A stretch of DNA of 15,983 nt, taken from NCBI GenBank assembly GCA_964589775.1, contig CAZPUN010000025.1, positions 1 through 15,983 on the forward strand, in the 5' to 3' direction. The DNA comes from an uncultured archaeon. GTDB lineage: Archaea > Asgardarchaeota > Thorarchaeia > Thorarchaeales > CAZPUN01. The translations under genes and the position numbers were made by a program. This document shows positions 2,176 through 13,016 of this stretch, piece after piece (within the stretch, counting starts at the first letter, position 1; each line of letters begins with the position of its first letter). The notes beneath the pieces are model-generated. The model saw only the letters and a program-made list of their open reading frames with translations. It was not told the DNA's origin and searched no databases.

Positions 2176-3705
2176 TCAGTGAAAATTTAGTCCTATCGTC
2201 ATGTTACTGATTATACCGAGAATTATAATATAGATCAAAAAGCCAACAAGCCCACTAAGTATTGGATGACGACTGCCCACCATTTTTGAAGACCCATAGG
2301 AAGAGTAAAAGCTCACAATTCCCATTGAGATTATCAATGGCCACATATCGGAAAAACTAGGAATGTGAGGCAATGTGAATTCGCCAAAACCTCCAAAAAA
2401 TATGCCATTCATAGATAGGAACGGTGCGAGCCCAACAGTAATTCCGATTACTGCCGCACTTGTTTTCGACAAGACTTCTATTTTTATTCCTTGTGCCTCA
2501 ATGATATTTCGCTTTTCTTCCGTAAATTCATTCCGAATAGCAATTTGCTTGGAAATACGCATTAGAAATATAGGAGCTTCGATAGGATTCGTTTCACTCA
2601 TAATATATGCGATCTTTAATAATATTTTACCACGCAATGTTTTTGTATTCTCAATTAGTTTCTCAATTGCCTCTTTATACGTGTACATATCCGAATAAAT
2701 TGGACTAAACGCCTTAATAATCCGCTCGCGAAGCTTGGGCTCTGCATATTGTGCTGATTCAAACATTGCATTTTCAGGAGAACCATGAATTCGTAACATG
2801 CCTGCAAAAACAACAATAAAATCTGTGATTGCTTTAATTTCGTTCACTTCATCCTTTAGAGGTAACCAAGCTGTTGATTTTCCTCGGGCAGAAAATAGAT
2901 TCCCTGAAACTCTTTTAATGAGAAATCTGACAAGTATTATGTAAATTATGAGCGCAATAAAAGGTATGAAACTCGTTGAATATCCTTCCATCGCTAAAAC
3001 AATAACAAGAAATATGGGGATATATGTCAAAATCATCGCAATAATTAGGAGACGACTCTCAAGCTCCATATTCAACTTTCGAAGCGCGGAATTAATTTCA
3101 GAAGACCCTTCAAAAGAAAATTGCGATAATTGCTTGGGATCGTGCTCTAATGCCAAAATCATATTAAGCCTACGACGTAGATCTGATGAAGGCTGAGTAT
3201 CAGCAAACTCCTTCAATGCCGTTTCTGGAGGGATTTCTTCCGCATTAACCCGTTGAATTATTTCAATAAAGCGTTCAGAAATCTGAGGAATATTTGCATT
3301 TGCAATCTCTTCAATAGCTTGAAAAATAGAGTTTGTAGTCACAAGTATCAATGAAAATAGTTCATAAACAAGATCCGCAATTTCCGAAAAAACAAGCTTA
3401 GTTTCTTTCATTTTAGACGGCAGATAGGTGTATGTGAGGTATAATGCAAGATAGCCAAATAGCATAGAAGACGGAATAGCAATCAATGGGCCAAGTCTAA
3501 ATAACAAGACAAATAATGAAATAAAGGCAACTATAAACGCCATAATTGCACCAGAGCTTACATCATTGGGCGATACGCCATATTTTTGAGAATAATATTT
3601 ACATGCAGTATCAACTTCGTCATCTTGAAGCTTTTTTGCAATACTACGAATTCCTGGGATTTTCCCAGATACCCTACACCACTTTCCATATAACAATTCA
3701 ATCAA
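2176..3705 (-). CDS. Type II secretion F / TadC (ArlJ/PilC-like) membrane platform protein
   Basis: Two repeats of a cytoplasmic helical domain followed by TM bundles (SIFQAIEEIA..ISERFIEII..PPETALKEFA; GSPENAM..YKEAIEKL), the archaeal TadC architecture; TTG start. Confidence 0.75.
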   Translation of the reverse strand: MIELLYGKWCRVSGKIPGIRSIAKKLQDDEVDTACKYYSQKYGVSPNDVSSGAIMAFIVAFISLFVLLFRLGPLIAIPSSMLFGYLALYLTYTYLPSKMKETKLVFSEIADLVYELFSLILVTTNSIFQAIEEIANANIPQISERFIEIIQRVNAEEIPPETALKEFADTQPSSDLRRRLNMILALEHDPKQLSQFSFEGSSEINSALRKLNMELESRLLIIAMILTYIPIFLVIVLAMEGYSTSFIPFIALIIYIILVRFLIKRVSGNLFSARGKSTAWLPLKDEVNEIKAITDFIVVFAGMLRIHGSPENAMFESAQYAEPKLRERIIKAFSPIYSDMYTYKEAIEKLIENTKTLRGKILLKIAYIMSETNPIEAPIFLMRISKQIAIRNEFTEEKRNIIEAQGIKIEVLSKTSAAVIGITVGLAPFLSMNGIFFGGFGEFTLPHIPSFSDMWPLIISMGIVSFYSSYGSSKMVGSRHPILSGLVGFLIYIIILGIISNMTIGLNFH

Positions 3706-3761: not shown

Positions 3762-3846
3762 AAAAAGACGAAAAAAGAGAATGAATATATAAGGGGGATG
3801 GCGAGTGGTGCCATCCGGGAAGAAGATCCCATGGATTTTACCATGG
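3762..3846 (-). promoter_or_regulatory. Three adjacent/overlapping hairpins followed by U-tracts (terminator/attenuator-like)
   Basis: CCATGG-N6-CCATGG (3829-3846), GGGA-N6-TCCC (3817-3830) and GGATGGC-N7-GCCATCC (3796-3816), then minus-strand TCTCTTTTTTCGTCTTTTT (3762-3780). Confidence 0.55.
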
Positions 3847-3879
3847 AAAGTCGGGTGGGTCATTGGGTGGAGAGTACAT
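3838..3879 (-). CDS. Unannotated 13-aa Pro-rich micropeptide MYSPPNDPPDFPW (candidate leader/arrest peptide)
   Basis: AGGTGA RBS (3888-3893) 8 nt before ATG 3879, the same RBS type as the genes at 2120, 4626 and 8505; TAA at 3838-3840; GC-rich island. Confidence 0.6.
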   Translation of the reverse strand: MYSPPNDPPDFPW

Positions 3880-4048
3880 TTTTGATTTCACCTTTTATTG
3901 TGGGTCATACATTAATGCCAAACTTTCCTATTTATTCAGCACACAATAAAATTTCAAAAAACGAGCAGTAAAAATGAAATAAAATAATAAAATGGTATAA
4001 AAAATACGAGAATATTATCGGGGTGCTTTTATAGAGTTTTAGTGATTA

Positions 4049-4534
4049 TTAAGATATTTCTTCATTCTGATAAATTCCGGTATAAGTTTTAGAAACTTCC
4101 TCGGATTTTACAAAAGTGATTTGACCTATCCGTGCATTTTGCTTTATTCGAATGCCATATGGGTTGTGCACTACAAGCATGCCTACGCCACGTCCTTTAT
4201 ATCCCGAATCCCAGAGCGCCGAAAATATAATTGCACCACTGCGCATTAATGACGAACGCGGTAATAAAAGCCCAACAAATCCAGAAGGAATTTCTACAAC
4301 TTCATTATATCTAACAAGATAAGCGCCTTGCTTTAACTCATACCAATTGTTTTGCGGCTCAAGATCCATATAATCAGGTAGATGTCGTTCTGAATTATCA
4401 AAATCAATCTGGCCCGTATTTGCAAAAGCCATAATTTTCCCAACTGTTAAATCAACGCCATTTGGTTGTACTTGTTTTGATTGATCAATGAAATCACTAA
4501 TGAACGATATAATTTTATTACCTGCCATAAACAT
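4049..4534 (-). CDS. dut: Archaeal dUTP diphosphatase (trimeric dUTPase / dCTP deaminase superfamily)
   Basis: QPNGVDL, PRSSLMRSG, WDSGYKG, RIGQ and C-terminal Y.G.YQ motifs; 161 aa. Confidence 0.85.
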   Translation of the reverse strand: MFMAGNKIISFISDFIDQSKQVQPNGVDLTVGKIMAFANTGQIDFDNSERHLPDYMDLEPQNNWYELKQGAYLVRYNEVVEIPSGFVGLLLPRSSLMRSGAIIFSALWDSGYKGRGVGMLVVHNPYGIRIKQNARIGQITFVKSEEVSKTYTGIYQNEEIS

Positions 4535-8504: not shown

Positions 8505-8864
8505 TTGTCAGATTCGAAACTTGAAGATATATTAAATAAATTTGAAGATCATGAACAAAGATTAACTAGACTCGAAGAGCTAATAAAACACAAAGATGAA
8601 ACTATGCCCTTATGGGCCAAAGATCTGGCGACAAAAGATGAATTAAAATCATTTTTTAATTCTTTAACAAGAGAAATCGATCTACTCAGAGATGACATGA
8701 ATAAGAGATTCGAAGATATAAACAAGAGATTCGAAGATATAAACAAGAGATTCGAGGAATTAAACACACATATGCGTATGTATTTCGGACTATTGACATT
8801 CGTAGTTACATTAATTAACACAATGATAACAATTATTGCTATAATGATTGTAAATAAGCCATGA
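8505..8864 (+). CDS. Coiled-coil heptad-repeat protein with C-terminal TM anchor (DUF1640/Bdr/paREP-like)
   Basis: AGGTGA RBS before TTG 8505; LATKDEL motif, (M/I)NKRFE(D/E) x3, hydrophobic C-terminal tail. Confidence 0.8.
   Translation: MSDSKLEDILNKFEDHEQRLTRLEELIKHKDETMPLWAKDLATKDELKSFFNSLTREIDLLRDDMNKRFEDINKRFEDINKRFEELNTHMRMYFGLLTFVVTLINTMITIIAIMIVNKP
8697..8759 (+). repeat. 3 x 21-bp in-frame tandem repeat
   Basis: ATGAATAAGAGATTCGAAGAT / ATAAACAAGAGATTCGAAGAT / ATAAACAAGAGATTCGAGGAA. Confidence 0.95.
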
Positions 8865-12086: not shown

Positions 12087-12245
12087 CCAAAATTATTTCT
12101 AAATAAAATCAAATAAATAAGGAAATAAAGCTATAGAATGTGGCGATGTTTCATTGTGCACAAAACATTTGAAAAAATCCATAATCTAATTTTAATCCGT
12201 TTAAAATATATAAAAAATAAGAAAACAAAATATCTTGGTTTTGAA

Positions 12246-13016
12246 TTAGTCAAACAGATAGGATTCTTGATTTTTATAAATAGCATCAAGCATTTCAAAA
12301 TATTCTTTCTTAAATGCAGTTTTCCCTTCGCCATAATCTGTATGAGCTAATTCTACAATTGTCCAATCATTCAAATAATCCCAGTCATTAATTGGCAAAA
12401 TTTTTGAACCTGCAACATCCATTATTTTAATCTTACTCGTAAATTTGTATAAATTACTAAGTAGAGATTCTTTAAAACCACGATATACGGGATTATTCGT
12501 CCCAGCAACTACAAAACGAGCCCGAACTTTCCCAGATATGTATCGCACTTTAATTTTCTTGACAAACTCCTCTACGGTATAGATTTTTGGTATTGAGCCT
12601 TGTGGATGAACTTTCGCTAAAGTATTATATGCAATAACATTTCCACGCTTGCTTATTATAGATTTAATAGTACCTATAACCTCTTTTTCTTCAACTTTTC
12701 CAAATGGATCAATTACTTCAGGACTGATTATGTTCACTTGGGGAACGGGTTCATCCAATCGCATTTCAGTAGGATCAAACAACAACGCACCAAGAGGGTG
12801 CTCAAAAGCAATCTCCACGCTTCCGCGCTTTGCAACTCCTTTGAAGAATCCAGGTCCGATTAGTGCCGATTTTAATTGATCTTCATATAATAGAGACCAC
12901 AGTTGTCGAGATAACATTAAAACTGTACCACGCACTGTGAGATCTTTTAATGACCCAAATGTGAAATCATAGGTTTCAACGTCCAACAACCAAACAAGAG
13001 GTGTAGTCCTACTCAT
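12246..13016 (-). CDS. Hypothetical alpha/beta protein (256 aa)
   Basis: Long ORF whose ATG overlaps the upstream stop (ATGAGTAG, 8 nt); no motif recognised with confidence. Confidence 0.8.
   Translation of the reverse strand: MSRTTPLVWLLDVETYDFTFGSLKDLTVRGTVLMLSRQLWSLLYEDQLKSALIGPGFFKGVAKRGSVEIAFEHPLGALLFDPTEMRLDEPVPQVNIISPEVIDPFGKVEEKEVIGTIKSIISKRGNVIAYNTLAKVHPQGSIPKIYTVEEFVKKIKVRYISGKVRARFVVAGTNNPVYRGFKESLLSNLYKFTSKIKIMDVAGSKILPINDWDYLNDWTIVELAHTDYGEGKTAFKKEYFEMLDAIYKNQESYLFD

Follow-up and report, generated by a model that had tools for sequence, protein, structure and literature searches.

The window, that is, the whole 15,983-nt stretch of DNA that was analysed, contains on its minus strand a 13-codon ORF that encodes MYSPPNDPPDFPW and is closed by TAA (3838..3879). 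It lies between an upstream gene for dCTP deaminase (4049..4534, minus strand; PF22769, E 1e-23) and a downstream gene for a TadC-like membrane protein (2176..3705, minus strand), the latter assigned through its homologues and lying outside the unit described here. The ATG is located at 3879 and the TAA finishes at 3838; a Shine-Dalgarno sequence (SD), AGGTGA, occupies positions 3893-3888, both PP pairs are encoded by CCA-CCC, and the GC content over 3791-3870 is 45/80 against 0.22-0.24 in the flanks. The ORF, its ribosome-binding site, the proline codons and the GC value had all been named in the original prediction, which took the ORF for a stalling leader peptide controlling the TadC-like gene, and they were reproduced in our analysis. 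The position of that gene was confirmed as well: it encodes 509 aa from a TTG start 132 nt downstream of the ORF and is co-oriented with it, likewise in the sister species considered below. The 509-aa protein has no Pfam match of its own, and its name comes from homologues at the 30-32% level that bear T2SSF and are named TadC.

Several features accompany the ORF on the minus strand. A conserved 5' block at 3907..3945, with an abrupt upstream limit of conservation across eight copies, is probably a promoter or, alternatively, the 5' arm of a structured RNA. It includes an AT-rich TATA-like box (3936-3929) about 55 nt before the ATG, which would place the transcription start near 3906, and the motif GGAAAGT (3921..3928), the inverted complement of GACTTTCC in codons 10-12 (3852-3845). 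In the predicted 5' UTR (3880..3906) 4 of 28 alignment columns are variable, all of them in a 4-nt spacer between SD and ATG and including a 1-nt indel. Hairpin H1 (3829..3846) uses the Pro12-Trp13 codons as its 5' arm and carries the stop codon in its loop; its 6 bp are present in 8/8 copies, one G-U pair is possible solely on the minus strand, and the TAA is fixed amid varying loop bases. Further downstream lies hairpin H3 (3796..3816), a candidate 3' stabiliser or terminator hairpin with a GC-rich stem of 7 bp and a variable loop. Its stem is intact in six of the eight copies, where the loop is free, and has 1-2 mismatches in two copies of the sister species. The folding z-score for 3785-3870 of the minus strand is -4.1. 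Finally, a U-rich tract at 3762..3776, matched in all copies by T-tracts about 10-20 nt past H3, is likely a terminator, a reading taken from archaeal terminators generally. It should be mentioned that two tiny upstream ORFs of 5 and 6 codons (3895-3912, minus strand) are retained in every copy; the stop codon of one overlaps the SD, and both start at or before the predicted transcription start.

The sequence AGGTGA pairs with the 16S tail of this genome and is unchanged in 8/8 copies. Its components AGGTG and GGTGA are enriched 11-12-fold 5' of long ORFs of the genome, in agreement with the earlier statement that the ribosome-binding site matches that of genuine genes. The distance between SD and ATG (8-9 nt) exceeds the genome mode of 5 and is typical for the family of Pro-Trp-ended (PW) peptides described below (family median about 7). 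When the element was shuffled with its dinucleotides preserved, an SD of at least 6 nt followed by ATG and a closed ORF of at least 8 codons appeared in only 1.4-2.4% of cases, and so the 13-codon ORF exceeds chance expectation.

Searches with BLAST and nhmmer revealed that a unit of about 150 nt is present three times in the genome, in the window (contig C25), at C21:88976-89143 and at C17:7897-8065, with an identical peptide encoded at each site; this dispersed nature was not visible from the window alone. While the window copy is placed between the dCTP deaminase and TadC-like genes, the C17 copy is located upstream of an unrelated 138-aa gene, and the C21 copy is divergent from an amidohydrolase gene and tail-to-tail with a convergent 241-aa gene ending 98 nt past the ATG. 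In neither orientation of the unit is a co-oriented downstream gene present at all three sites. No polyamine- or translation-related role was recognised among the genes downstream of the copies, no export signal or processing enzyme was found near the micro-ORF, and no regulator or candidate partner gene adjoins any of the three copies.

These surroundings bear directly on the idea of a cis-acting leader that senses aIF5A or polyamines and governs read-through into the tadC-like gene. The co-oriented gene 132 nt downstream in both species agrees with it, as does the precedent of AZIN1, whose PPW uORF is eIF5A-dependent (PMC9082881). As originally claimed, the peptide also contains strong stalling triplets: PPN and PPD are kept across the two species, with APP replacing DPP, and the published list of strong pauses includes all four triplets (PMC4739656). 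The expected linkage to tadC stood only in part: the arrangement recurs in the sister species, but the C17 and C21 copies lie elsewhere, and a comparable ORF is missing upstream of a distant tadC homologue. Nor do the genes downstream have a function in polyamine metabolism or translation that such a sensor would serve, and no conserved antiterminator is present. Thus, the tadC-leader reading fails because the contexts are unrelated, with one identical copy before the 138-aa gene and another facing a convergent gene, because no co-oriented gene is consistently present, and because H2, a small competing hairpin behind the stop codon that hinted at an attenuator, is private to the window copy. 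Together with the missing PP pair in 13 of 23 family peptides (see below), this makes a leader function highly unlikely.

Outside the copies, no complement to the element longer than 16 nt was found in the genome, and an antisense target RNA was rejected on this ground. A weak fourth match to the element on contig C23 falls inside coding sequence. Scans for the exact pattern across species genomes, JGI metagenomes and viral contigs met only matches due to chance or to unrelated coding sequence, DNA and covariance-model searches of 40-86 relatives revealed no element, and none of the element copies matched Rfam covariance models. A promoter matrix scan of the whole genome detected no shared motif elsewhere and no regulon. 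Contigs from the main DNA sequencing run, which possibly comes from the source sample and is not independent evidence, break at the element as they do at repeats; a second run contained only a small piece of the flank. No RNA run was among those listed for it, which carries no information on expression.

A sister species was reached via homologues of the flanking proteins (three assemblies; neighbouring proteins 72-92% identical), and in total eight copies from the two species were compared. The element is present at all three orthologous sites of the sister species, where every copy encodes the variant MIAPPNAPPDFPW with identical nucleotides. Core identity is 90-99% between paralogues within a species and 84-88% between orthologues of the two species. 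Eight fixed differences separate the copies of one species from those of the other; codons 2, 3 and 7 account for six of these, and a single column is locus-specific. Since the paralogues within a species are closer to each other than the orthologues between species, and the differences are species-fixed, this comparison indicates that the three copies undergo concerted evolution. In a third, more distant relative (ERZ23491061) the C21 site is an empty interval of 82 bp, and the contigs are too short at the other two sites. The C21 copy appears to have been gained or lost within the family, because the distant relative has only these 82 bp there.

The SD, the ATG, the TAA and the ORF length are invariant beside variable positions. 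Neither the start codon, nor the ribosome-binding site, nor the frame has been lost in any homologous region, and the ORF is intact in all eight copies. Indels occur in the SD spacer, the H1 loop and the spacer between the hairpins; there is none in the 42-nt ORF. The 15 columns of the H1-H3 spacer are all variable, and the flanks of the element are unalignable between the two species. Within species only two changes were found in the ORF, both synonymous. The earlier expectation of synonymous-only variation did not hold between the species, where six non-synonymous changes are fixed and there are no synonymous changes at the eight shared codons; the degenerate shared codons are identical in 8/8 cases, compared with about 50% of those in neighbouring genes (P about 0.002). 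Hairpin H1 explains the constraint on the last codons. The remaining codon constraint may reflect two complementarities, that of codons 10-12 to the GGAAAGT block and that of the CCA-CCC pairs to the SD. The former amounts to 7-8 complementary pairs in 7/8 copies, with one mismatch in the C17 copy (minus strand), and might possibly form a long-range helix or a paired operator, whose near-invariance gives no covariation proof. Judged by this pattern of constraint, the window ORF is very likely a translated micro-ORF.

As the original prediction had anticipated, the gene is missed by gene callers; one of them annotated the antisense frame instead of the micro-ORF. The antisense ORF was examined as a candidate and discarded: a 1-nt spacer indel breaks its frame in three copies, and another copy contains a stop.

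The conservation at the nucleotide level inside the ORF would also suit a multicopy structured non-coding RNA from either strand, its ORF being incidental and its C-rich CCACCC motifs or anti-SD stretch pairing with mRNAs. Two complementary blocks join the 5' region to the ORF, one of them with a U-A/A-U swap between the species, and for several G-U pairs in H3 and in the long helix the opposite strand is the better fit, although taken together the G-U pairs give a mixed strand signal. Against such an RNA, only one of the 26 predicted base pairs covaries, and this pair is broken in the window copy. The ATG and TAA are invariant islands amid variable positions, the family is conserved at the peptide level with free codons in relatives, and a covariance-model search of 86 other genomes of the class gave no match. 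At C21, moreover, a promoter on the opposite strand would have to fit into the 15-25 nt that follow the upstream stop. We therefore regard a non-coding RNA as improbable. Other RNA-like sequences were noticed in the course of this work. A GC-rich element of about 170 nt with paired ends and no Rfam match (C15 about 8690-8860, minus strand; L081 about 12100-12280) is conserved in the sister species, where its closing stem shows a compensatory change. Two GC-rich islands (C1:27000-27230 and C17:30120-30230) have a 17-nt block in common; the C1 island contains a tandem CCACCC pair, the genome's only one besides that of the element, and a 16-nt match to the 5' UTR of the element, and its hairpin would occlude the SD of a GH3-family gene.

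Dispersed copies, the empty interval in the third relative and a genome rich in MITE-like repeats could likewise point to a non-autonomous mobile element or a DNA-level site (MITE, origin, operator). This is scarcely probable: both species carry the element at the same three sites, with 84-88% identity between them amid flanks that cannot be aligned, and the copies share no terminal repeats or target duplication. A MITE- or IS-derived element was discarded, as no terminal inverted repeats, target duplication or species-specific insertion sites were seen. A replication origin was rejected too, with true ORB boxes flanking cdc6 on C13 and no skew inflection at the C21 copy. The cdc6/orc1 gene with its canonical ORB boxes (C13:29370-32150) marks the likely replication origin of this genome. 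The window itself contains one MITE-like repeat at 1161-1440, an ORF-less sequence of about 270 bp between a 212-aa gene and a nitrilase gene, which has about 27 counterparts at 70-84% identity in the rest of the genome.

The names of homologues point to an Asgard-type archaeon as host, the sole representative of its family among the genomes compared; the other family of its order comprises 86 genomes. Relatives of the peptide were sought with the pattern SD-ATG...PxxPW-stop and, as a control, the reversed pattern. The 58 genomes searched from the sister family of the order (86 genomes) yielded 17 matches against 3 for the control, and 12 of the 17 were short in-frame ORFs; in 202 other Asgard genomes both patterns gave 3 matches and no short ORF. 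The 23 peptides collected have 10-17 aa and an SD gap of mostly 6-8 nt; a PP pair is present in 10 and absent in 13. The peptides MVSCPPNDPMPIPPW and MYPALPPDPSLPW are similar to the window peptide, and the former retains PPNDP via other codons. The motif PPxDP...PW occurs in three genomes (G002, G007 and G031) and PPDP in G008, with diverging codons. TATA-like boxes were found 47-54 nt 5' of the ATG in three members of the sister family. Members of the PW-ended family have in common an intergenic position, a length of 10-17 aa, at least three Pro residues, a Pro-Trp-stop end and a GGTGA SD 4-9 nt upstream, and the window gene is likewise an SD-led intergenic ORF of this length, proline content and ending. 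It thus appears to be a member of this class-wide family, where membership is defined by composition and a short motif, with no E-value alignment. What distinguishes it from the sister-family members is the presence of three homogenised copies at conserved unlinked sites, the frozen codons and the lack of a detectable partner protein of about 670 aa.

This partner is found in 75 of the 86 relatives. A PW peptide lies directly upstream of it at 12/30 loci, compared with 1/25 control regions (p = 0.003, a value overstated by kinship of the genomes), and its predicted structure (mean pLDDT 62) matches NirDL and Lrp/AsnC folds (E 2e-4). In the genome studied here, which is 96.75% complete, the search for it gave 0 matches. 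Many PW peptide copies of the relatives also stand alone, without the ~670-aa neighbour. Other family members are divergent from proteins of 450-540 aa, one with an AsnC-type HTH; the studied genome encodes homologues of these proteins on C30 (11502-12983) and C33 (25554-27179), with E about 1e-11, and a weaker one on C44 (270-1700), none of them with an adjacent peptide gene. The uvrC gene was considered as a fixed locus of the family and dismissed (1/30 only).

Some further members or possible members deserve mention. A PW peptide gene (L123, G044:C288:90495) is situated between the rpS7 and EF-1alpha genes, and its upstream region is common to a second copy preceding the ~670-aa partner. 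In the studied genome, a stand-alone 13-codon ORF encoding MDPIFPPAGDGGW (C15:9143-9102, minus strand; L077) has an 8-nt SD, a TATA-like box and a U-tract; it resembles the PPxGPW members of relatives and has no counterpart at the sister species' orthologous site. An SD-led 11-codon ORF, MDPYSDDPFPF (C45:13155, minus strand), closely precedes a 78-aa gene and is possibly a family member that ends in Pro-Phe.

The same unit can be read as a ribosome-holding mini-mRNA whose function is the act of translation: the SD, the PP pairs and the Pro-Trp-stop would stall ribosomes or sequester aIF5A and Pro-tRNA and so damp translation under stress or in dormancy, as CreT does, with the three copies providing dosage. 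The layout of SD, mini-ORF with consecutive prolines and stable hairpin is that of CreT (10.64898/2026.06.02.729485; PMC8501985), the replacement of DPP by APP preserves a strong pause triplet, and the freeze at the codon level between the species is easily accommodated. An aIF5A-like gene is present in the genome; quick scans turned up neither tRNA-Pro(GGG) nor deoxyhypusine synthase, which does not imply their absence. Two sister-family members lie within a cas locus. These two genes (L121:4123-4161 in G009 and L204 in G007) are antisense within the locus, flanked by a Csa1 gene and by the gene of a Csa3-like CARF-HTH protein, the latter followed by an AsnC-HTH protein gene. In the genome studied here, however, all three copies lie away from cas genes and arrays: Cas7 is encoded on C5 and a Cas6-like protein on C39, the arrays are on other contigs, and the Pfam model of Cas1 gave no match. 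None of the spacers or ectopic-repeat guides corresponds to the conserved core, and a search for a CreA guide to the promoter among 17 repeat-adjacent spacers, from arrays cut by contig ends, gave low local scores, the best match being A-rich low-complexity sequence. The 13 of 23 family peptides without PP also count against ribosome holding, and a coevolving partner explains the species-wide fixed amino-acid changes more easily. We consider ribosome holding rather unlikely, though it is the strongest of the rival readings. A likeness to permuted CRISPR repeats was discarded, being post hoc and significant in only one of four copies and in none from this species. Six isolated degenerate 36-nt CRISPR repeats occur outside arrays (C26:4655, C30, C40:13478, C44:5907, C50:1259 and C53:868) and are candidates for CreA-like regulatory guides.

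The unrelated contexts of the three copies, one of them without a co-oriented downstream gene, speak for a stand-alone gene. A free-standing micropeptide with its own terminator, named in the original prediction as the alternative, fits best, and we conclude that the window ORF is most probably a translated stand-alone gene of the PW family. Transcription of the unit would begin under the internal TATA-like box about 55 nt before the ATG and end at the U-tract, the strong SD would direct translation, and H1 and H3 may protect the mRNA. The product would be an unprocessed, acidic, proline-rigid peptide ending in Pro-Trp. The gene seems to have been copied to three unlinked sites, where gene conversion and selection would maintain uniformity and thereby one peptide variant per species. 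The constant C-terminal PxxPW could serve as an anchor and residues 2, 3 and 7 as a species specificity tag. That the peptide acts in trans as the ligand of an unlinked large Lrp/AsnC-like regulator is the likeliest mechanism among those considered, to which we would give slightly less than an even chance. The identity of all eight degenerate codons between the species, unnecessary for a plain peptide ligand, argues against it, as does the lack of a partner gene next to any copy and of a match to the ~670-aa protein in the genome. More tentatively still, it can be hypothesized that Asgard archaea possess peptide signalling in which leaderless Pro-Trp-ended peptides are sensed by large Lrp/AsnC-like receptors, and that here the peptide gene has become detached from its receptor, amplified to three sites and kept species-specific by gene conversion, similar to a pheromone identity tag.

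In the literature we found no account of ultrashort signalling peptides from Asgard archaea, nor of mini-mRNAs that hold ribosomes there; either outcome, a peptide signal or a mini-mRNA, would be a first among the prokaryotes most closely related to eukaryotes. It is also unusual for a gene of 13 codons to evolve in concert at three unlinked sites. Two natural variants differing at three residues, together with named candidate receptors in the same genome, constitute a clean test pair, and the class-wide gene family has been overlooked by gene callers.

Three groups of known systems resemble the window gene in part. MgtL is a Pro-rich leader that depends on EF-P. Like MgtL, AZIN1 and the short termination-arrest peptide PepNL (PMC11890864), the window gene is a short Pro-rich ORF with strong pause triplets, but it has no consistent downstream gene or switch structure and ends with FPW instead of PPW. 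The proline-codon CreT RNA toxin of Pseudomonas aeruginosa arrests translation via two Pro codons (10.64898/2026.06.02.729485), and haloarchaeal CreT is a small RNA with SD, mini-ORF and hairpin (PMC8501985). CreT RNAs share with the window unit a strong SD, a mini-ORF with consecutive Pro codons, a stop codon and a stabilising GC-rich hairpin. The window ORF differs in having 13 codons instead of 4-6 and in its PP pairs not immediately preceding the stop; the unit is vertically conserved in three unlinked copies away from cas genes, with no CreA-like guide found. SIP/RopB is a communication system based on an ultrashort leaderless peptide, and peptide-receptor pairs of the RRNPP type include Rgg/SHP and ComR/ComS.

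The RRNPP pairs just named (PMC7564271) and SIP have in common with the window gene an ultrashort unannotated gene with its own ribosome-binding site, an aromatic C-terminus and species-specific variants, and in relatives the PW family, like RRNPP pairs, is encoded beside a large regulator-like gene. In contrast to these peptides, that of the window is archaeal, acidic and Pro-rich, not hydrophobic, and has no adjacent partner or exporter; no TPR-type receptor gene lies beside any of its three copies, and the modelled fold of the PW family's partner appears to be Lrp/AsnC/NirDL-like, not TPR as in RRNPP receptors. The unit thus resembles an ultrashort leaderless signal peptide or a CreT-type mini-mRNA, yet lacks the linkage that defines each of them. 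Compared with these systems, what is new is that the PW family reaches a second family of the order, where its gene has been triplicated and homogenised at conserved unlinked sites and persists without its usual partner.
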